64,000 nucleotides of DNA from a virus. The notes beneath the pieces were generated by a model. It searched no databases and was not told where the DNA came from. It saw only the letters and a list, made by a program, of their open reading frames with translations. Both the position numbers and the translations under genes were made by a program. Positions 2,449 to 55,089 of this stretch are shown piece by piece. Every line of letters begins with the position of its first letter. Position 1 is the first letter of the stretch. The stretch spans positions 1-64,000 of the IMG/VR virus record IMGVR_UViG_3300009527_000006; one strand, given 5' to 3'.

Positions 2449-3474
2449 TTGAAGAAATTTGAATATAAACAATCATTAGAAATGTTCAAATCATTTGATG
2501 CTGATACGAGATTGGTAGTATTAACATCTGGAATTGCTATTATTGATGAAATTTATGACACATTAAATTTAGAATTGAAAAATGAATATGTTTCTCAAGG
2601 ACCGAATTTAACTGAAAACCAAGTAAATGATATTAGTAAAAATAGTAGTCTAAGAAAAAGATATGTTGAAAGACGGGATATTAGTTTTACGCAAATGGTA
2701 AATACTGGTAAATATGAATTTAATAATTTGGATTTAGAAGTAAAATCAATTCAAATTAAAATAGAAGAAGGAAGAAGTAAAGCACAGAAGATAGTAGATA
2801 GTTATTCTGGAGGAAATTTAAATTTAAGATATATGTGGTTAATAGAATTACCTGATATGTCTAAAATAGATGTGACTGGTGATTTTTTGTGCGCATATAA
2901 TGAACTTGCATCGTTGAAAGGTTGTCCTAGAAGTGTTGTTGGAAGTTTTCATTGTAGCAATAATCAATTATCAACATTAGAAGGTTCTCCTAGTAGAGTT
3001 GGAGGTGATTTTTATTGCAATTATAATAAATTAAAAACACTAGAAGGTGCTCCTAGTAGGGTTGGAGGTGATTTTGAGTGCAATTTTAATAATTTAATAA
3101 CATTAGAAGGTGCTCCTAGTAGTGTTGGAAGAGGTTTTTATTGTAATGATAATAAATTAACAACACTACTAGGTGCTCCTAGTAGTGTTGGAGGATTTTT
3201 TAATTGTAAGGTTAATAAATTAACAACACTACTAGGAGCACCTAGTAGTGTTGGAAGAAGTTTCTATTGCAATTATAATAAGCTAATAACATTAGAAGGT
3301 TCTCCTAGTAGTGTTGGAGGAAGTTTTGAGTGTGATACTAATTCTGATTTAATTTCATTAAAAGGTGCTCCGGCAAAAATAGGGGCAAGATTTCTTTACC
3401 CTGATAAATTTACAGAAGAAGACGCTGACACTGCAATGACAGAGCGGAGAAAGCAACTATCTATACAACAGTAG
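2449..3474 (+). CDS. Leucine-rich-repeat-like protein (C-terminal part of the frameshifted gene)
   Basis: 22-aa repeats NKLxTLEGAPSSVGGxFxC. Confidence 0.75.
   Translation: MKKFEYKQSLEMFKSFDADTRLVVLTSGIAIIDEIYDTLNLELKNEYVSQGPNLTENQVNDISKNSSLRKRYVERRDISFTQMVNTGKYEFNNLDLEVKSIQIKIEEGRSKAQKIVDSYSGGNLNLRYMWLIELPDMSKIDVTGDFLCAYNELASLKGCPRSVVGSFHCSNNQLSTLEGSPSRVGGDFYCNYNKLKTLEGAPSRVGGDFECNFNNLITLEGAPSSVGRGFYCNDNKLTTLLGAPSSVGGFFNCKVNKLTTLLGAPSSVGRSFYCNYNKLITLEGSPSSVGGSFECDTNSDLISLKGAPAKIGARFLYPDKFTEEDADTAMTERRKQLSIQQ
2872..3385 (+). repeat. 66-bp tandem coding repeat, ~7-8 units
   Basis: Recurring GGTGCTCCTAGTAGTGTTGGAGG...TGCAAT at 66-bp period. Confidence 0.85.
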
Positions 3475-8759: not shown

Positions 8760-8783
8760 TATTTTTTCAATAAATAAATCATT

Positions 8784-45835: not shown

Positions 45836-46459
45836 TTATAGTTTATTTGCCAGTATAACCTGATTTATAGTTTTTTTAAGCAATTTACTGGCAGAATATT
45901 TTGTATGTAAAAAATTTAATTGATCTTTCGTATCACCAAGATAAAGCTCATATTCTTCTGGTGGAAGATTAAGAAGTTTGGCAAAACCCTCTAGATAGAA
46001 AACGGTATATAGGTTAGTGCTTTTATTTTTAAGATGAAGAAGATAATCTGGCTGATGAACAGTAGCATAGTTTAGGTAGTCTGTCAACTTTATTTTCTTT
46101 TCTTTACAGAAATCCAGCACAAATTTTACGCATTCTGTAGTATATCTAATATTATCAGGATGATCGGTATTTTCAGATACTAGTAAGTTTACATAGCTAG
46201 AACATACTAGCATACACTTAACTGTAGAAAAATAATTCAAAGAAAAAAACTTTTTATCTTTATAAATTTTATAGGGTGCGATAAAATATGTTCTTGACAT
46301 TAGGTGAGGATGTTTTTGAAAAAACTTTTCAAGTTTTTCAAGAGCACCCTTTTTAGAATCATCTAATTTTTCATATTTTAGCAAACTTTTACATGGGCGA
46401 TCATTTGCTTCAGCAAGAGCCTCTAGGAAAAGATTGTAAATTTTTAATTTATTGTCCAT
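45836..46459 (-). CDS. Hypothetical protein (possibly gp59-like helicase loader)
   Basis: Likely start MDNKLK; adjacent to gp32. Confidence 0.5.
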   Translation of the reverse strand: MDNKLKIYNLFLEALAEANDRPCKSLLKYEKLDDSKKGALEKLEKFFQKHPHLMSRTYFIAPYKIYKDKKFFSLNYFSTVKCMLVCSSYVNLLVSENTDHPDNIRYTTECVKFVLDFCKEKKIKLTDYLNYATVHQPDYLLHLKNKSTNLYTVFYLEGFAKLLNLPPEEYELYLGDTKDQLNFLHTKYSASKLLKKTINQVILANKL

Positions 46460-46913
46460 TGTTGCGACTATACAGAAATTTATCAATATTATCAAGACTT
46501 TCAGGACCAACTAGTTCTCCACTTATAGCGATAGAATGGCCGTCTTTGAGCAAAGTTACTAATGACTCAACCACATCACTTGATAAAAAATCAAATTTAG
46601 CTCCTAGAAAAAATAAATATATTTGTTCTAAAGTTACAAGACCGTCTTTCCATTTAATATAATAAGAACAGAAATCAGTATATTTTACGAGAATATCTAG
46701 ATAAGAATAAGCATTACTGTCGTTGTCTAAAATATTACTACAATCTATATGATCCTGATTTAAAAATTTTTCTTTACTAGAAAGGTAAGTTCCGCAATAA
46801 TAAACAATTTCAGTATCTTTTGACACCGTATTTGTAAAAAATTGTAGCGTTAGTGCAAATGATTCTAACCAAGTATCAAAATCGTAGTCAGGGCAGAGAG
46901 TTTTAATTTTCAT
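46449..46913 (-). CDS. Hypothetical protein
   Basis: Likely start MKIKT after TTGACT-16-TATTCT. Confidence 0.55.
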   Translation of the reverse strand: MKIKTLCPDYDFDTWLESFALTLQFFTNTVSKDTEIVYYCGTYLSSKEKFLNQDHIDCSNILDNDSNAYSYLDILVKYTDFCSYYIKWKDGLVTLEQIYLFFLGAKFDFLSSDVVESLVTLLKDGHSIAISGELVGPESLDNIDKFLYSRNNGQ

Positions 46914-46998
46914 AATAATAGAATACAGCACATAATTCAGAAGTCAAGCGCTAAATTCAATCATTTAGATATTTTGAAGACACTACTAAATCACAAGA

Positions 46999-47087
46999 GG
47001 CGAACAAAACGGATGCAGACAACGCTCTATAAGTTGTTTGTCACATTCATAGTCTTTTATTCGCGTGTCTGATCCGAAGCGTTCGGG
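46999..47087 (+). repeat. attC-like site 1 (type A)
   Basis: GGCGAAC-AAAA-CGGATGCAGACAACG...CGTGTCTGATCCG-AAGC-GTTCGGG; two extrahelical bases. Confidence 0.88.
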
Positions 47088-47113
47088 CAATACGCATCCA
47101 CACAAAATCACGC

Positions 47114-47554
47114 ATGTATAATAGACCGTCTAATTCTGAAGTTGCGGAAATTACTGGATACAATCTTCCTATAGAAGAAATCTCAGAATTTCCCACAGCT
47201 AAACAGCAACAAGAAGGAGGTTATATTTTGAAGTATATTGGCCGCATCTCAGATACTTGTGATACCTTCTTGAAAACTGCACATGGTAAGGTAGTTGCTA
47301 TAATATTGCTTATCCATGGAATCATCGGATTTGCTAGAGATGCATTTGATGGTGCAACATACATCTATAATGCATCTGCTCCTATGCTTGAAAGGATTGA
47401 GACTTTTGTATTTTCTCATAAGAACCAAGAAGTCTCTCCCGAATACCTAGTATTGATCCCAAAAGAAACGCACCTGACACTGCCCGTAAAAGATTGGGCT
47501 GATTTTCCGGCAGGAACCCAATTTGCGCCAGCCAGTAGCATAGATTACACATAG
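47114..47554 (+). CDS. Cassette 1 gene, membrane protein
   Basis: 146 aa, one TM segment; starts 27 nt after R'. Confidence 0.7.
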   Translation: MYNRPSNSEVAEITGYNLPIEEISEFPTAKQQQEGGYILKYIGRISDTCDTFLKTAHGKVVAIILLIHGIIGFARDAFDGATYIYNASAPMLERIETFVFSHKNQEVSPEYLVLIPKETHLTLPVKDWADFPAGTQFAPASSIDYT

Positions 47555-47633
47555 CCAACGATCCAAAATATATAAATGCAAATATTTCACAACAAACCCA
47601 TACTTTATTCAAATAATTATATTTATTAGACAT
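47382..47633 (-). CDS. Cassette 1 antisense ORF/transcript
   Basis: TATAAATA 6 nt upstream of ATG; overlaps the top-strand gene. Confidence 0.35.
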   Translation of the reverse strand: MSNKYNYLNKVWVCCEIFAFIYFGSLAMCNLCYWLAQIGFLPENQPNLLRAVSGAFLLGSILGIRERLLGSYEKIQKSQSFQA

Positions 47634-47669
47634 TTTACCTATTTATAAAGACTTTAGACTAAAACAAGA

Positions 47670-47759
47670 CCCGAACAAAGAAACTGGAGACAACAGCTCA
47701 GCATAGTTATTCTCCTATATTAGTTCTGTGTTCGCTGTGTCTCAGTTTAGACGTTCGCC
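47670..47759 (+). repeat. attC-like site 2 (type B)
   Basis: CCCGAAC-AAAG-AAACTGGAGACAAC...GTGTCTCAGTTT-AGAC-GTTCGCC. Confidence 0.88.
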
Positions 47760-47783
47760 TAACAACACACAGCCTCTACTACA

Positions 47784-48056
47784 ATGTATAAAACTCAGCC
47801 TAAATATCGGGCCATCATTCGTTTCTCCTTGGATAAGGATGAGAGTTCAAAGTTTCGCAACTCTGTTATTAGAAAACTTAGAAAAGCTAAATTCACCAAC
47901 ACAAATAAGACTGGTTCTTGGGAGACTCCATCCGCAGATTTATCTATTATTCAGTCATTAGTCTGCACCGTTATGAACGAACTAGGTAAAGTAACGAATG
48001 ACGACGGAAAGCCCGTAACATTGGACCATATGTGGATGTGCATAGATAAAGTTTAA
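47784..48056 (+). CDS. Cassette 2 gene, hypothetical
   Basis: 90 aa ORF directly after R'. Confidence 0.7.
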   Translation: MYKTQPKYRAIIRFSLDKDESSKFRNSVIRKLRKAKFTNTNKTGSWETPSADLSIIQSLVCTVMNELGKVTNDDGKPVTLDHMWMCIDKV

Positions 48057-48223
48057 TCTTCTTCGTTCCACCTAGGGTCATCATCTGACCATTCATTCCA
48101 TCCAGATTCGATTTCGTCTGAGTCTGAATTGATAACTATTTTTGTTTTAGATTCAGTATGACACCCACAGTTGCCACATACGCCGCTAATAACGACTTCT
48201 ATAGGTTGAGAATTATTTTTCAT
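48053..48223 (-). CDS. Cassette 2 convergent 56-aa ORF (CxxCxCH, acidic Trp-rich tail); not in track
   Basis: MKNNSQPIEVVISGVCGNCGCH...WNEED*; ATAAATA 7 nt upstream; stop overlaps partner stop (TTAA). Confidence 0.55.
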   Translation of the reverse strand: MKNNSQPIEVVISGVCGNCGCHTESKTKIVINSDSDEIESGWNEWSDDDPRWNEED

Positions 48224-48261
48224 AATCAGCTATTTATTGGCAGCTCTTGCTATAAACAAGA

Positions 48262-48350
48262 GGCGAACAAAACGGATGCAGACAACGCTCTATAAGTTTT
48301 ATGTCACATTCAGAGTTTAGTATTCGCGTGTCTGATCCGAGACGTTCGTC
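48262..48350 (+). repeat. attC-like site 3 (type A)
   Basis: GGCGAAC...CTGATCCGAGAC-GTTCGTC. Confidence 0.88.
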
Positions 48351-48937
48351 TTATGAAATGCCACCCAGTGAGTCTGCGCTTTCTTGCCGCTACGGTGGCC
48401 GTAGAGCGGGCGTTCTGGCGTGAGTGCCAGCACTTCGCGGAGCGGGATTTCAGCCTCGCACCATTTGAAGATCATCGTTCCATTCACTTTCAGGACACGG
48501 AAGCATTCAGCGAATCCCGCCCGCAGGTCGTCGCGCCATGTCGCATCCAGAAGCCCGAAGTCGAAGGCGATGCGTCCCGTTGCCCCGGCTCCTTTATGGA
48601 AGTGCGGCGGATCGAATACCACATGCCAGAACGACTCATCAGGGAACGGCATGTTTCGGAAGTCCACCACCATATCAGGCGCGACGGTTTTCGGGGTGCG
48701 CCCGATGGTTCCCGGCGTTCCCACGTCGATGATTCGCGTGCCTTGGCGTTTGTCCACATACAGGGCGCGGTCATCCTGTTTATCGAACCAGAACATTCTG
48801 GTTGAGCAGCACGCATCCAATACCGGAGGCAAAGACGAACAAGTCGCTGCATGCAACCCGCTTTCTGCGTGCTGTTGGCGCGTTAATGTGAAGAGGTCAT
48901 CCATAGGTGTATCGGTGTATTGTGTCAGCGGGTGCAT
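48317..48937 (-). CDS. Cassette 3 SAM-dependent methyltransferase, antisense to the array
   Basis: VLDACC..MFWFDK, VFDPPH and GFAECFRVLK motifs; GC-rich; start in attC4, stop in attC3. Confidence 0.85.
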   Translation of the reverse strand: MHPLTQYTDTPMDDLFTLTRQQHAESGLHAATCSSLPPVLDACCSTRMFWFDKQDDRALYVDKRQGTRIIDVGTPGTIGRTPKTVAPDMVVDFRNMPFPDESFWHVVFDPPHFHKGAGATGRIAFDFGLLDATWRDDLRAGFAECFRVLKVNGTMIFKWCEAEIPLREVLALTPERPLYGHRSGKKAQTHWVAFHKTNVSDQTREY

Positions 48938-48953
48938 GAGCTAGGCGTTCGCC
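48834..48953 (+). repeat. attC-like site 4 (type C)
   Basis: GACGAAC-AAGTC-GCTGCATGCAACCCGC...GCGGGTGCATGAGC-TAGGC-GTTCGCC. Confidence 0.85.
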
Positions 48954-48962
48954 TAAAAACCA

Positions 48963-49217
48963 ATGCACTCATCACAAACTAATTCGCAGATGATAATCGC
49001 GCACATGCTAGCCAATGATAACGGAGCCATTTTTCATTTTGAGGACTATAGATTCAATGTTCGTCCTGAAGATCGAGTCACTTCCAGCAATTGGCCTAGT
49101 GGTATAACATTGCACATTAGACTTTCTAGCACAGGGCTGAGCGCAGCTTCTTACGAGAACGAGACAGTGCTCGGTGAATATGTGGATGAAAGAGGAACTC
49201 CCATTTTGCCTTATTAG
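48963..49217 (+). CDS. Cassette 4 gene, hypothetical
   Basis: 84 aa ORF starting 10 nt after R'. Confidence 0.65.
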   Translation: MHSSQTNSQMIIAHMLANDNGAIFHFEDYRFNVRPEDRVTSSNWPSGITLHIRLSSTGLSAASYENETVLGEYVDERGTPILPY

Positions 49218-49459
49218 GAATTATTACTTGGATCATTCGGAATTGCATGGCCGAATCTCAGCACTTCACCATTGTCATATAGATAGGCCATTCCACGAAT
49301 TCCAAAAGGACCATTATACTTACCTTTCTCATTCTGTATTTTTATGTTCTCGTGCATAGTCCATCTTCGCCAGATTCCAATAGCTTCATCATACGGAAGT
49401 GCCTCTGGATCTGGGTATTTGGTTAAGTCTATTGGGTTGTCTAAATTTAACATATTCAA
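49214..49459 (-). CDS. Cassette 4 convergent ORF
   Basis: 81 aa; ATAAGTA upstream; stop overlaps partner stop. Confidence 0.55.
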   Translation of the reverse strand: MNMLNLDNPIDLTKYPDPEALPYDEAIGIWRRWTMHENIKIQNEKGKYNGPFGIRGMAYLYDNGEVLRFGHAIPNDPSNNS

Positions 49460-49493
49460 AGCTACTTATTCGTAGTCAAATGCTAAAACAAGA

Positions 49494-49583
49494 GGCGAAC
49501 AAAGAAACTGGAGACAACAGCTCAGCATAGCTATTCTCCTATATTAGTTCTGTGTTCGCTGTGTCTCAGTTTAGATGTTCGCC
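49494..49583 (+). repeat. attC-like site 5 (type B)
   Basis: Near-identical to site 2; GGCGAAC...GTTCGCC. Confidence 0.88.
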
Positions 49584-49598
49584 CAACCTCACCACACC

Positions 49599-49784
49599 AT
49601 GTCTATTATAAAGAAACCTAGTTCGTGCGTATTTTGCAGATCTGCACTGATTAAAGGTCCGATTAAGAGAGATCGTAATTTAAATGAAACTATTGAAATG
49701 AAGAGTGTCGTTTATATTTGTGAGCAATGTAATTTTGTTCACGAATTTAATATTCATACTACTAAAAAATCTAAGATGAAGTAG
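49599..49784 (+). CDS. Cassette 5 zinc-ribbon protein
   Basis: CVFC...CEQC. Confidence 0.6.
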   Translation: MSIIKKPSSCVFCRSALIKGPIKRDRNLNETIEMKSVVYICEQCNFVHEFNIHTTKKSKMK

Positions 49785-49935
49785 TAGACACGAAACATGC
49801 AAGCCCATCACATTGAGCATTCCACATTTCATCCAGAATTCTATCATTATTTTCCTGTTCTTCTTTGGAAAGTCTCATCCAATGACACTGCTCCACTTCT
49901 AACCATTCACGTATCTTTGCTTTTATCCATTGCAT
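49771..49935 (-). CDS. Cassette 5 convergent 54-aa ORF; not in track
   Basis: MQWIKAKIREWLEVEQCHW...TTSS*; ATAAGTA 9 nt upstream. Confidence 0.5.
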   Translation of the reverse strand: MQWIKAKIREWLEVEQCHWMRLSKEEQENNDRILDEMWNAQCDGLACFVSTTSS

Positions 49936-49974
49936 AGTAGTCAATACTTATGAAGCTAATAAACAGAAACAAGA

Positions 49975-50063
49975 GGCGAACAAAACGGATGCAGACAACG
50001 CTCTATAAGTTTTATGTCACATTCATAATTTTATATTCGCGTGTCTGATCCGAGACGTTCGGG
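49975..50063 (+). repeat. attC-like site 6 (type A)
   Basis: GGCGAAC...GTTCGGG. Confidence 0.88.
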
Positions 50064-50219
50064 TAAAACAGAACATAAACACCACAATGAATGAATCTAC
50101 GTTAGTTGATTGCGCTAAATGGTTATATGAAAAGCAGCAAGAGAACCTAAAAGCCGGAAAGAATCTACTTTGGCAGCCACATATAATAACCGTTCTTTTA
50201 AACTTACAAAAATCTAAAG

Positions 50220-51446
50220 TCATACTTTTAAGATATAAACTCTCGATTTTTTGTTAAATTCCTGCTTCACAGACGGGCTAACCAAAGTCGTTTCCGACAA
50301 TGGTGAACTCCCATCTCCACAGGCTTGAATTCCCGAAGAACTTTCGGTATAAATTTGTTTCAGATTCAAACTCGCATTTAAATCTCTATCTATTTTCATA
50401 TCACACATTTTACATTCAAATACTCGGTCTGTCAACTTCAAATCTGAATTTTTCCATCCGCAACATGAACATAATTTAGAACTGGCGTAGAAAGTATCTG
50501 CGAAGACAACTTTTCTATTATTCCATTTCGCTTTATATTCAATTTGGCGACGAAATTCATAAAGTCCTACGTCACTGATAGCCTGAGCCAAACAGTGATT
50601 TTTCAACATATTGCTTACTTTCAAATCTTCCAACACAATTACATTGTTTTTCTGTATTATGTTAGAAGTGATTCTATGTAAGCAATCTTTACGAATATTT
50701 GATATGTGATAATGTAATTTTGCTAACTTTTGTTTTGCTTTTCCATAATTTTTACTTCCTTTTTTCTTTCTTGATAATTGTTTTTGTTTGCGTTTTAGTC
50801 TCTTGAGATTTTTCTTTAATGCTTTTGGATTTTCATAAGTTGTCCCATCTGAGCAAGTAGCTAAAGTTTTAATACCTAAATCAATTCCTACTACCTCATT
50901 CTTGGCGTTAGAATGCTCTCTGTCAGGTGTCTCTACTTGAACTGATACAAACCACTTACCCGCACGTTTCGAGACTGTAGCAGACAGTATTTTACAATCT
51001 GTTGGGATGTAATCTTTCTCGGATAATTTGAGTTTGTCGATTCGTGGTAGCTTAATGTAATCAGATTCAACTGAAATCGCGCCGTCTAGTCTGAAGGATT
51101 GCTTTTCGTTTTTCTTAGATTTAAATTTTGGAAATCCTTTCTTACCTTTAACTTTCTTTTTACAACGAGTGAAGAAATTTTGAAATGCTTTATCACAATC
51201 TCTTAACGCATTTTGTGGAGAAGTCTTGCTTGAATTATACATCCAAGGAACATCTGTCTGTTTTAGCTTGTTTAATTCTCTATGAATCTCAATAGCATTT
51301 TGAATTTTCTCTTTCTTATCAAATTGTTCTTTCTTTTTAGCTAATGCCCAATTATATGCCCATCTAGCGCAACCAATATGCTGTAATAACAAGGTTTGTT
51401 GCTTGTTATTTACATCTAGCTGAACTTTATAGGCGCGGAGAATCAT
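50220..51446 (-). CDS. tnpB: TnpB RNA-guided endonuclease
   Basis: GIDLG, VLEDL, CSCCG/CKMC and DRDLNAS: RuvC D-E-D intact. Confidence 0.95.
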   Translation of the reverse strand: MILRAYKVQLDVNNKQQTLLLQHIGCARWAYNWALAKKKEQFDKKEKIQNAIEIHRELNKLKQTDVPWMYNSSKTSPQNALRDCDKAFQNFFTRCKKKVKGKKGFPKFKSKKNEKQSFRLDGAISVESDYIKLPRIDKLKLSEKDYIPTDCKILSATVSKRAGKWFVSVQVETPDREHSNAKNEVVGIDLGIKTLATCSDGTTYENPKALKKNLKRLKRKQKQLSRKKKGSKNYGKAKQKLAKLHYHISNIRKDCLHRITSNIIQKNNVIVLEDLKVSNMLKNHCLAQAISDVGLYEFRRQIEYKAKWNNRKVVFADTFYASSKLCSCCGWKNSDLKLTDRVFECKMCDMKIDRDLNASLNLKQIYTESSSGIQACGDGSSPLSETTLVSPSVKQEFNKKSRVYILKV

Positions 51447-52308
51447 TTTAATCTTTCTAAACAAATATCATAATACTCTTTTTCTTTTTCGATGCCGATA
51501 AACTGACGATTGAGATTTTTGGCGGCAACCAGAGTTGTTCCCGAACCAGCAAAAGGATCGAACACCAAATCCTCTTTATTTGAGATAGACTTCACCAAGT
51601 CTTCCATCATATTCAACGGTTTTTCACATGGATGTTTGTCTTTTCTTTGCGAGACTATTTCATATTCAATTACATCTTCAAATGAAGATAGCGATAACGA
51701 ATCAAATTTTCGTTTGGATAATTTAATACCTAAATCTCCTCTAATTTGGGAAGAAATTTTGGAGATGGAAAGCATCTACCACATTCCCAATTTGATACTT
51801 GACCACCATTATTAACGTTTCCATAAGCACCCAATATTTCAGTAAGCTCTTTTACCGATACCCCCTTAGAAATGCGGGCATTCTTAATGTCATTTGGATA
51901 AGAATCTTGTGAAAAATAAATTATTCTTTCTGATGCTGGATATGGTCGTCTAAGGGAATTTTTATTACACTTATTTTTCCAACCCTCACTCCCCTTATTT
52001 GGAAAAGTTTTCTTCCACACAATTTCAGATTGGAAATTGAAATATTGATTTATCAGGACGGCTAAAAATGGAGCCAATGATGGCTTACAAAAAACGTAAC
52101 CACTACAAGTATTTTTCATCTTCGGTTTAAGAATTTTGAAAAAATAATCAAACCATTTTAAAAATTCAGTATCGTTATCATGTTCATTGTCCCAAGTGTG
52201 CTTTTTAACATTGTGATAAGGTGGATCGGTGACAAGGATATCCACGCTTCCATCTGGAATGTCCTTCATCAATTCTAAACAGTCGCCATGCCAAATTTCT
52301 TGTTTCAT
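51443..52308 (-). pseudogene. Beta-class N4/N6 DNA methyltransferase with internal Cro/C1 HTH, frameshifted
   Basis: GDCLE..DPPY (51730-52308) and HPCEKP..DPFAGSGTT (51443-51775) are in different frames; one extra T near 51732 gives LEEILGIKL. Confidence 0.8.
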
Positions 52309-53336
52309 TCCATCGCCTCCTTTTCTTTCTTTTTACGATTCTGTGAGCTAATCATACCCAATCCTTCTCTAATTAGATACAGGCGACCAGTCGAAGTTTT
52401 TAACTCTTTTGCTACGCCTCTCCAAGTTTGATGTTTATCAAACAAATCGTGCAGTTGTTTTACTGTAATATCTGAACGCTTTTTCCGTAAAATTTGCTGA
52501 GATAGACACTCTAAATATAATTCATACTTTCTATCCAAATACACTTTAGCGTTTGAGTATATTGGTCTTAATATGTTTTGAACTAACTCGACCCCCGCCG
52601 AAGATATGCAGCAAGTTTCTGAATCTCCCTCTCCATATTTTGATAGGATTTTTGCGCGACATTTGCTATACGAAAGAATATACTCTTGAAATTTCTCAAT
52701 AACAAGCCTATTTCCAACAAGATTAATTGTCCACACCCAAGATTTTTTATATTTGGGTTCAAGCGTTTTAGAAATGCAGCCATCACCGTCAAATATGCCT
52801 CGCCAAAAATGACAGTGTAAATCCTTTGGAATTAAATTTAACGGAGGAATAAAGCTAAAAGATTTTCTCGGTAAAATACCAAATTTAGCCAAATCATTGC
52901 ATATTTTTCTGTTACCAATTACAATTCGACACGACTCAAATATTTTACTATTATCACCCCCTTCAAAAGAGGGCGAACTTCTACATATTTTAATTGGATG
53001 CGCCGAACGGCAAAATTTCTTAAATTTTTCTAAGTGCAACAAATCTGACTTTTTTAAACCTATATTCAATCCTCCATAATCGGTTACGTTGCCGTCGGCG
53101 GCAATGAATCCAAGCCAATAAGCCTTATCTTCTGTGTCAATTTTTTCAAAAATAGAATCGTCAATAGTATATTTAGAGTTATTTTTAATTTTGATACCCC
53201 TTTTTTTGGCTTCTCTGGTGCAGCATTCGCTACTTAATCCGTAAACAGCCGCCGCCCTTTGTGCAGAATCCCCGTTTACATATAGATTAATCATTCCGTC
53301 CTTTTCTTCTTGTGTAATAGTGCGTCTCATATACAT
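52305..53336 (-). CDS. LAGLIDADG endonuclease
   Basis: AYWLGFIAADG and FWRGIFDGDG motifs; LDRKY. Confidence 0.9.
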   Translation of the reverse strand: MYMRRTITQEEKDGMINLYVNGDSAQRAAAVYGLSSECCTREAKKRGIKIKNNSKYTIDDSIFEKIDTEDKAYWLGFIAADGNVTDYGGLNIGLKKSDLLHLEKFKKFCRSAHPIKICRSSPSFEGGDNSKIFESCRIVIGNRKICNDLAKFGILPRKSFSFIPPLNLIPKDLHCHFWRGIFDGDGCISKTLEPKYKKSWVWTINLVGNRLVIEKFQEYILSYSKCRAKILSKYGEGDSETCCISSAGVELVQNILRPIYSNAKVYLDRKYELYLECLSQQILRKKRSDITVKQLHDLFDKHQTWRGVAKELKTSTGRLYLIREGLGMISSQNRKKKEKEAME

Positions 53337-53352
53337 ATATTTACACTAAAAA

Positions 53353-53913
53353 TCACTCTTTTTCACAAAAATCTGATAAAACTTCATCATCGGGATAGAT
53401 TTCTGTAGTCACCTCTTCCACCTTTTCAATTCTAACTCCATAGGAATTAAAATAAGACAAAAGATAATTAAAACAAAATCTTGATAATCTATCTTTATGC
53501 TCAATTAAGACTACATCAATTTCTTTCTTTTCTACTAACTCAAAAAGTTTCTGCAATTTCTTGCGATTGTCGTTCATTCCTGAACCAACTTCATCAAAAA
53601 CAGCAACAATAGAATAACCACGCTTCAATGCCTCTGTAGTCATTCTGCCGACTTGTCTTTCTAAATCACCTTTAGTCTTCTGTTCATGTGAACTAACGCG
53701 ACAATAGATAGCCACACGCTTACCATCTGTTACTTTAACAGGTTCTACATAGATTCCCGCCAATTTCTCAATATCGGCTCTGTAATAGCGTCTATGACCA
53801 CCTTTTGTATGGAATGGCGTTAATTTGCCTTCTCGCTCCCAATTTCTAAGAGTTTCGTCGGAAACGCCTAAAATGGACGCAGCATCACTAATTGATAGAA
53901 TCTTTTTATCCAT
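53353..53913 (-). CDS. tnpA: IS607 serine recombinase TnpA, apparently C-terminally truncated
   Basis: MerR-like HTH (GGHRRY), YCRVSS, DEVGSG, DRLSRF; lacks the usual ELVED..FSARLYG helix. Confidence 0.9.
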   Translation of the reverse strand: MDKKILSISDAASILGVSDETLRNWEREGKLTPFHTKGGHRRYYRADIEKLAGIYVEPVKVTDGKRVAIYCRVSSHEQKTKGDLERQVGRMTTEALKRGYSIVAVFDEVGSGMNDNRKKLQKLFELVEKKEIDVVLIEHKDRLSRFCFNYLLSYFNSYGVRIEKVEEVTTEIYPDDEVLSDFCEKE

Positions 53914-54082
53914 TTTTGTCTATCAATCCTTTCTGTTGAAACAACCTAAACCATTCGTCATAGATTCGTTGAAATTCCTCTACGGTTGGAACTTCATCTA
54001 ATTCAAACGGAATATCATGGATAACTCCATCATCGGTTTCAAATTCTGTTGCTGTAACTCTTGTAATCATTTTTGGCTTCAT
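53906..54082 (-). CDS. 58-aa acidic ORF at the IS left end; not in track
   Basis: MKPKMITRVTATEFETDDG...KNG*; overlaps the tnpA start. Confidence 0.6.
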   Translation of the reverse strand: MKPKMITRVTATEFETDDGVIHDIPFELDEVPTVEEFQRIYDEWFRLFQQKGLIDKNG

Positions 54083-54148
54083 ATATATTTACACTAAAAG
54101 TTTAGATTTTCTACGAAAAAAGTGAAAATATTTTAACTTTCTTTAGAT

Positions 54149-54177
54149 ATTTTAGATTATCGGGCAACTGTTGTCAA
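54149..54177 (-). promoter_or_regulatory. Sigma70 promoter at the IS607 left end
   Basis: TTGACA-17-TAAAAT directly inside the GG core. Confidence 0.7.
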
Positions 54178-54273
54178 CCCTCGGAAAGTTGTGGTTACTA
54201 TTTGTTTCCTGTTTTGCGATATTATCCACTGCTCTGATCACCGAGTTTATAAAACAAGATGGGTATAAGTTGT

Positions 54274-54531
54274 TTAAGTCCAGCCTAAATAATGAACACA
54301 CAAAAGCATCGGAACCACCCCCATCACAAACAACAAAACACATAAAATAATCAACCATCCTAATGCCATGAAGAGGCATTCTACAAAAGCCTTAAACTCA
54401 CCATCAAACCCGAACAAAACGGATGCAGGCAACACCTCTGGGCTGTCTGTCGTATTATTCATAGTATTTTCGTTCGGTGTGCCTGATCCGAGACGTTCGC
54501 CTTCTGCTAATTTAGTTTGTTTTTTCATCAA
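54274..54531 (-). CDS. Antisense membrane ORF reading through attC7
   Basis: 85 aa; ATAAATA upstream; alternative ATG (MNNTTD) inside the attC7 loop. Confidence 0.5.
   Translation of the reverse strand: MMKKQTKLAEGERLGSGTPNENTMNNTTDSPEVLPASVLFGFDGEFKAFVECLFMALGWLIILCVLLFVMGVVPMLLCVHYLGWT
54409..54501 (+). repeat. attC-like site 7 (type A variant)
   Basis: CCCGAAC-AAAA-CGGATGCAGGCAACACC...GGTGTGCCTGATCCG-AGAC-GTTCGCC; compensatory stem changes. Confidence 0.88.
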
Positions 54532-54699
54532 AAGCTATTTATGAAATAATATTATTAATTCAACCAGCATAATAATAACCATGTTTAACTACCTAAAGAC
54601 TAGCTTGTGTCAATTTTGTAAAGGAACCACTGACCCATCCACAAAGAAAGAGATTTAAACTCTTCATTTGAGATAAAGTGTGTTATTTATATTTTTGAG

Positions 54700-54790
54700 G
54701 CTCTATAAGTTTTATGTCACATTCATAGCTTAGAACTCACTATGTCTCAGCGTAAACTTACCATTCATGTCTGCGCTAGGCGTTTGCCTT
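54700..54790 (+). repeat. Degenerate attC remnants
   Basis: GCTCTATAAGTTTTATGTCACATTCATAG (type A loop) and GCTAGGCGTTTGCCT (type C end). Confidence 0.6.
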
Positions 54791-54807
54791 AACTGCATAA
54801 TGTTCAA

Positions 54808-55089
54808 CTACAGTGGAACCAAATCTTCAAATTTTATTTTCTTACTTTTATGAAGAATTGGATATTTATTAGAAAGAATTTCTACTATCTCAAACCAAGA
54901 AAGATTTGTCATATCTATGAAAATATCACGTAAATTTTGGCTTTTTTCAAGAGTTAAATATAAATGAATACATGATACAGGTTTATCATATACAGTCGTC
55001 AAAAACCCTCCTAAACACCTAAATTGATGGTCTAGTTCTTCTCGGTCAATGAGTTCAAATGCAGTAGGCTGCTCAAGATTTTTAATCAT
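54808..55089 (-). CDS. Hypothetical protein
   Basis: 93 aa ORF. Confidence 0.6.
   Translation of the reverse strand: MIKNLEQPTAFELIDREELDHQFRCLGGFLTTVYDKPVSCIHLYLTLEKSQNLRDIFIDMTNLSWFEIVEILSNKYPILHKSKKIKFEDLVPL

Follow-up and report, generated by a model that had tools for sequence, protein, structure and literature searches.

A cluster of attC sites with cassettes bounded at G^TT, and no integron integrase nearby, on an uncultured freshwater T4-like phage

Phage-borne arrays of integron cassettes are already known: Qi et al. (2023) described 17 attC-site clusters without an integron integrase (CALINs) in phages, virulent ones included, noted methyltransferase cassettes among them, and found that 5 of 6 tested phage attC sites recombine with attI1 under IntI1. 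By the definition of Cury et al. (2016; PMC4889954), a CALIN has two or more attC sites that share a strand and are separated by less than 4 kb, and it lacks a neighbouring integron integrase. Here we describe a well-documented new example in the first 64 kb (the window) of a 92,025-bp IMG/VR virus record, IMGVR_UViG_3300009527_000006. Seven attC sites lie on its + strand between 46999 and 54501, followed by a decayed eighth site, and the region 46999-54788 is a CALIN by this definition. The carrier is an uncultured freshwater T4-like myovirus, and the array occupies a variable spot of its replication module. We consider it highly probable that these are true integron cassettes in a phage CALIN, exchanged by IntI-type recombination between the G and the TT of the R' box (G^TT), most likely with a host IntI acting in trans.

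The array shares with the phage CALINs of Qi et al. (2023) several attC sites on one strand, the lack of an integrase, a lytic-type carrier, cargo of mostly unknown function and a methyltransferase cassette (Methyltransf_11-like, according to the summary of their Table S4). It differs from them in its carrier, a distant T4-like myovirus with seven intact and one decayed attC, in an attC family that can be traced to Verrucomicrobiota integrons and has loops drifted toward phage base composition, and in the polymorphism of a single cassette between natural samples. Recombination was assayed in that study, whereas the attC sites here are described from their sequences.

The seven sites have attC architecture. 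Their bottom strands share one fold in all seven cases, consisting of an R stem, a 3-4 nt unpaired spacer, an L''/L' stem and a variable loop of 37-70 nt, with two extrahelical bases at fixed positions in 7/7 sites; the site lengths of 89-120 bp lie within the attC range of roughly 57-141 bp. The unpaired spacer and the extrahelical bases are the defining features of attC, and the position of the latter marks the strand (PMC5027507), so the + strand is the top strand and the G^TT orientation assumed in an earlier note on this DNA is correct. The consensus fold has 19 pairs, 8 of which show compensatory double changes. A GTTCG/CGAAC core is invariant in 7/7 sites and includes the AAC/GTT triplet, the only part universally conserved among attC sites (PMC5027507). 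Sites 1-6 are spaced 481-672 bp apart, and site 7 lies another 4.4 kb on because an IS607-family element has inserted into the last cassette.

The earlier note had proposed that the cassettes were inserted as circles, on the grounds that the bases after each G^TT complement the R'' box of the next attC. All twelve R-box strings that it quoted are present where it placed them, and the R' of one site and the R'' of the next are exactly reverse-complementary at 6/6 junctions. Past GTT, complementarity to the next R'' extends over 4, 5, 6, 5, 4 and 5 bases, compared with 2, 2, 2, 2, 4, 2 and 2 bases to the site's own R'' for sites 1-7; as the note had also claimed, R' is unmatched to its own R'' in six of seven sites, and only site 5 self-matches as well. 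It is a textbook point of integron biology that what follows G^TT is part of the next cassette (PMC5027507). The array adjoining IntI in a Verrucomicrobiaceae locus (L300) served as positive control and obeys the same rule, with runs of 5, 5, 5, 4, 5 and 5 bases to the next site and 1, 2, 0, 0, 0, 0 and 0 to the own site. The chain is not an assembly artefact, since independent unitigs of the probable source run each hold one R'(i) together with R''(i+1). Each junction offers only 2-4 informative bases, in three classes (GG, CC and TC(TT)), and when the partners were permuted in all 720 orders, 12 of them equalled the observed chain score (p = 0.017). The chain thus exceeds chance, yet alone it is modest evidence; it places the exchange point no more closely than somewhere inside attC, and homologous recombination between attC copies would also keep it. 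Circularising each cassette in silico at G^TT stabilised the bottom-strand hairpin in 6/6 cases, by 0.9-4.8 kcal/mol relative to the linear attC, with the R stem lengthening from 6 bp to 8-10 bp, and the cassette's own start always fell in the best compatibility class.

The precision of the G^TT boundary rests on the comparison of cassette 3 across contexts and on a 603-bp deletion variant, not on the chain itself. As checks, the earlier note had looked to circularisation and to finding the same cassette beside different neighbours, and both outcomes support its reading. Cassette 3 is such a case: elsewhere it differs on both flanks, with breakpoints at G^TT. Its DNA is 90-92% identical in at least six other contexts (L139/L221, L140, L219, L220 and L222) and about 81% identical in L226/L227. 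At the left edge, unrelated sequence precedes the G and all copies share a sequence beginning TTCGTCTTATGAAATG from TT onwards; at the right edge, the attC is common to all copies up to GCG^TT and divergence then begins, the sequences at the boundary being GTTCGG, GTTCCC, GTTCGC, GTTCTC, GTTCTA, GTTGTG and GTTCGT. Across at least seven contexts, both ends of cassette 3 stay at G^TT. In addition, 48342 is joined to 48946 on a contig of a different freshwater study (X3), with the loss of 603 bp that are exactly cassette 3. The junction shares only CGTTCG, and 6 nt are too short for ordinary homologous exchange. A 6742-bp skip in X3 was given no weight, since one of its sides is only 21 nt. No back-joining junctions of the kind that circles would leave were seen among the contigs, which cannot show rare circles, and this result is neutral. 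We also observed attC arrays of the same family together with the methyltransferase cassette on L001-L005 and L139-L149, IMG/VR contigs filed as viral with a G+C content of 0.55-0.6, which may be fragments of bacterial integrons or further phage CALINs.

T4-type phages also carry promoter early stem-loop (PeSL) cassettes (Arbiol et al. 2010, PMC2839356; Comeau et al. 2014, PMC4122927), which resemble the present array in being small ORFan cassettes between stem-loop repeats in a hyperplastic region, with a promoter-like motif beside the hairpin and loss of several cassettes through recombination between repeats. The repeats might accordingly be read as PeSL-like stem-loop and promoter elements intrinsic to the phage, with homologous recombination by UvsX looping out and reinserting ORFans and the likeness to attC incidental. 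The T4-like carrier, the hyperplastic spot between conserved genes and the hairpin beside a promoter-like NATAAATA on the bottom strand would suit such a reading, as would the PeSL mini-circles that have been documented (PMC2839356). So would a further contig (from X4), which lacks 1713 bp corresponding to cassettes 3, 4 and 5 and whose junction lies inside 59 nt common to attC3 and attC6, with the attC6-type 3' half retained. We nevertheless regard this explanation as very improbable. In bacteria the repeat family lies beside intI, its phage copies match a model for which only bacterial attC sites were used, and it is absent from all 73 related phage loci (941 kb scanned). A PeSL consists of a sigma-70-type early promoter and a terminator hairpin, and its homology-driven crossovers fall at variable points within the motif, whereas here cassette 3 has fixed G^TT ends with 6 nt shared, in attC sites of a kind found in bacterial integrons. 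The promoter/terminator scan said little: sigma-70-like sites number 39 against a shuffled expectation of 29.4 (standard deviation 4.8), which is barely above it, and terminator-like sites showed no enrichment.

The attC family belongs to the chromosomal integrons of Verrucomicrobiota. A 23-nt pattern of the R''-L'' arm matched more than 120 loci in a set of species-representative genomes, nearly all of them Verrucomicrobiota metagenome-assembled genomes (Verrucomicrobiaceae, Prosthecobacter, Brevifollis and Akkermansiaceae). IntI was found in 3 of 5 such genomes at 378-395 bits, above the curated cut-off of 265, with degraded copies in the other two, and exceeded the cut-off in 55 of 145 Verrucomicrobiaceae genomes. 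At L300, intI on one strand is followed by an attC array of the same family on the other. When a covariance model was built from 54 bacterial sites only, its hits in the 92 kb were the seven phage sites (42-79 bits) and no others. With such sedentary chromosomal integrons the phage array shares arms nearly identical to the bacterial consensus, cassette sizes of about 450-630 bp, the R'/R'' chain rule, and the cassette leader TTCGCC.AAC with an ATG 16-32 nt further on. It differs from them in having no intI, attI or cassette promoter (Pc) beside it on the record, so that it does not make a complete integron, in running antisense to the surrounding phage genes, in the much lower G+C content of its loops and cargo, and in the second, bottom-strand open reading frame (ORF) of several cassettes. 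The G+C content of the phage attC sites is 0.53 in the arms and 0.34 in the loops, compared with 0.60 and 0.56 in bacteria, and sister sites differ at 7 of 193 arm positions and 33 of 153 loop positions. Conserved arms beside loops that have drifted toward phage base composition suggest continued selection for function and count among the signs of a long stay in a phage.

Several observations weigh against IntI-type exchange of true integron cassettes. First, neither IntI (TIGR02249) nor any tyrosine recombinase (PF00589) matched in the 92 kb; the search took in 47 kb of sequence upstream of the array and 37 kb downstream of it, and the negative is limited by a record that is 35% complete (CheckV). 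Second, no attI-like site or GTTCGCC boundary was found upstream of attC1, where the left flank consists of phage genes. Third, the R boxes GGCGAAC/GTTCGCC depart from the textbook RYYYAAC/GTTRRRY at two of four degenerate positions; the identical departure occurs in Verrucomicrobia arrays adjoining IntI, which makes it a trait of the family. Fourth, stability does not consistently favour the bottom strand, which is the more stable of the two in only 3 of 7 sites, and the differences are at most 1.2 kcal/mol. Fifth, no bacterial relatives were found for the cargo of cassettes 1, 2, 4 and 5, which leaves a bacterial origin of these cassettes unsupported. Lastly, the 1713-bp deletion variant fits homologous recombination between attC copies better than exchange at G^TT, and both processes seem to act on the array.

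The missing integrase could be explained if the phage encoded its own in the roughly 65% of the genome that lies off this record, making the array part of a split phage-borne integron. The low completeness leaves room for it, the same cassette proteins are present on a 126-kb contig, and intI does occur in some phages (Qi et al. 2023). We hold it to be improbable, given that intI adjoins the array in integrons and that neither a tyrosine recombinase in the 92 kb, including the long stretches on both sides of the array, nor an attC of this family in the related loci was found.

A piece of bacterial array could also have entered the phage as one block by illegitimate or homologous recombination, its chain inherited and no IntI event having taken place on phage DNA. 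A chain would pass through such a transfer unchanged; the record lacks intI and an attI-like left boundary, and the distal end of the array is composed of decayed attC fragments. There, the eighth site has lost R''/L'', kept a type-A loop and shows GAGGC where R'(7), GTTCGCC, predicts an R'' of GGCGAAC, and it was missed by both covariance models. This account is nonetheless unlikely in our view, since the phage contig from another sample that lacks exactly cassette 3, with its 6-nt junction, implies at least one single-cassette event within the phage lineage. Also against it, cassettes 1, 2, 4 and 5 are low in G+C and without bacterial relatives, two of them carry the phage's NATAAATA motif, and the attC sites have kept their arms as their loops moved toward phage composition. 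Some cassettes may also have come to the phage already assembled in a bacterial integron.

Each cassette starts with TTCGNN after the G of the preceding R' and ends with its own attC through that G, and its two ends pair as an R box once it is circular. Under the favoured reading of exchange by a host IntI, we infer the acting enzyme, its place of action and the existence of circles as follows. Cassettes would be gained and lost through an IntI-type reaction on the folded bottom strand at AA^C (G^TT on the top strand). The enzyme would most likely be the host's integron integrase, supplied in trans during infection, and the host, as indicated by the attC family, a freshwater bacterium of the Verrucomicrobiaceae or closely related to them. 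That an integron integrase would recombine these attC sites is suggested by association, the same family adjoining IntI in bacteria. The array is probably also reshuffled by homologous exchange from one near-identical attC copy to another. Of the claim that the cassettes were inserted as circles, the integron cassettes bounded at G^TT stand as observed, while the circles come from the established IntI mechanism (PMC5027507).

Table 1. Features of the array and its borders. attC coordinates are given as the start of the R'' 7-mer / G of R', followed by the whole site.
Feature	Position	Strand	Remarks
c0b	45836..46459	-	207 aa; conserved phage gene, left border of insertion; in 66/73 related loci, adjacent to g93 there
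c0a	46449..46913	-	phage-type accessory gene directly left of attC1; 3' end overlaps c0b start
attC1	46999 / 47081; 46999..47087	+	type A; R'' GGCGAAC, R' GTTCGGG; 77.7 bits (bacteria-only covariance model)
cassette 1	47082..47753 (672 bp)	+	+ ORF 47114-47554 (146 aa, no relative found); ends in attC2
attC2	47670 / 47753; 47670-47759	+	type B
cassette 2	47754..48344 (591 bp)	+	+ ORF 47784-48056, - ORF 48053-48223; ends in attC3
attC3	48262 / 48344; 48262-48350	+	type A
cassette 3	48345..48947 (603 bp)	+	about 60% G+C; class I S-adenosylmethionine (SAM) methyltransferase 48317-48796 on bottom strand; ends in attC4
attC4	48834 / 48947; 48834-48953	+	cassette 3's own attC
cassette 4	48948..49577 (630 bp)	+	+ ORF 48963-49217, - ORF 49214-49459; ends in attC5
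attC5	49494 / 49577; 49494-49583	+	type B
cassette 5	49578..50057 (480 bp)	+	+ ORF 49599-49784 (CxxC...CxxC), - ORF 49771-49944; ends in attC6
attC6	49975 / 50057; 49975-50063	+	type A
cassette 6	50058..54495 (4438 bp)	+	cassette of about 507 bp split by IS607-family element; ends in attC7
IS607-family element	about 50190..54120 (approximate ends)	-	inside cassette 6
TnpB	50220-51464	-	in IS607-family element
split N6_N4 DNA methylase	51443-52308 (51443-51775 + 51730-52308, overlapping frames)	-	in IS607-family element
LAGLIDADG-like endonuclease ORF	52305-53336	-	in IS607-family element
TnpA, serine transposase	53353-53913	-	NF033518, 160 bits against a cut-off of 110
attC7	54409 / 54495; 54409-54501	+	end of cassette 6
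decayed eighth attC	54697-54788	+	R''/L'' deleted, type-A loop kept, R' mutated to GTTTGCC (54782-54788)
g93	54808..55089	-	conserved phage gene, right border of insertion

The cargo of the array is listed in Table 1. Searches with the cargo of cassettes 1, 2 and 4 found no relatives, either in very large collections of proteins or across 145 Verrucomicrobiaceae genomes, and the small cassette ORFs had no Pfam or NCBIfam match. The same cassette proteins were matched on a 126-kb and a 66-kb contig. In each of cassettes 2, 4 and 5 (within 47114-49944), two small candidate ORFs converge from opposite strands, their 3' ends touching or overlapping, and cassette 1 has overlapping candidate ORFs on both strands. 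The motif NATAAATA lies 5-8 nt before the ATG as the usual gene-start context of the phage's own genes (for example at 8769, 13437 and 31128), and it also precedes bottom-strand ORFs in cassettes 1 and 2 (47647 and 48238, - strand). It resembles a T4-type late promoter set very close to the start codon, and a further copy at 54543 (-) precedes an 85-aa ORF that reads through attC7.

The methyltransferase of cassette 3 has thousands of protein relatives, up to 97-98% identical, and no relative of solved structure was found by sequence. Its gene faces away from its attC in every context, and its stop and last codons lie past the cassette boundary in the neighbouring attC3 (48317-48350), so the C-terminus must change with each new neighbour. 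Among the matches listed, its relatives span 113-251 aa.

Within the IS607-family element of cassette 6, a methylase and a LAGLIDADG-like ORF stand between TnpA and TnpB, an unusual layout. Loose contig ends occur at 50189/50190 in three runs and at about 54118-54151; those at 50189/50190 suggest other copies of the element elsewhere. A contig of run X3 skips 1073 bp at 52349-53423, within the element, which indicates that the LAGLIDADG-like ORF is present in some copies and absent in others, as expected of a homing endonuclease. The IS607 TnpA belongs to the serine recombinases and bears no relation to attC recombination.

The assignment of the carrier draws on genes across the record, which include a major head protein, tail sheath, large terminase and RNA ligase. 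Around the array lie a gp32-like single-stranded DNA-binding protein, a DnaB/gp41-like helicase, UvsX, a gp43-type DNA polymerase and a gp46/SbcC-like protein. Identity of this polymerase to that of any cultured T4-like phage is only about 31%, and the background G+C content is about 0.30-0.37. Single-protein searches with the helicase or with cassette protein P0133 returned no close phage relatives. At least 25 loci of related uncultured phages, whose helicases are 43-52% identical, keep the order uvsX-gp41-g93-c0b-gp32, and there the gap between g93 and c0b is about 15 bp, compared with 8,348 bp (46460-54807) in this phage. None of the 73 related loci holds a relative of any cassette ORF, and one of them has a relative of c0a at the equivalent spot. 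For c0b there was no family match; its position beside gp32 would suit a gp59-like helicase loader. Unitigs from several samples join both ends of the array to phage genes, and an assembly chimera was rejected because unitigs in three studies span phage genes and attC sites. Elsewhere in the window, six tandem copies of a 63-nt unit lie at 2834-3342, within the ORF 2449-3474.

It is possible, though we put it forward tentatively, that the phage lineage keeps working attC sites under selection together with a cassette pool of its own, low in G+C and without bacterial relatives, exchanged through the integron integrase of the host. Some cassettes are two-faced, with one gene on the top strand and another on the bottom strand bearing the phage's NATAAATA signal; weighing against a phage-native pool, the bacterial cassettes of this family are already fairly low in G+C, at 0.43-0.55. 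If the idea is true, the near-identical type-A and type-B attC sites on unrelated cargo would mean that new cassettes form within phage genomes or are made for them, and this would bear on the open question of where integron cassettes originate.

The array is an unusually complete natural record of integron cassettes moving on a virulent-type phage genome, combining exact G^TT boundaries, a cassette that recurs in many contexts and environmental populations that differ by a single cassette. Its attC family ties an uncultured phage to a probable host group, and the methyltransferase cassette would offer the phage a plausible anti-restriction gain. The low-G+C, orphan and partly two-faced cassettes provide a test case for a cassette pool maintained by phages.

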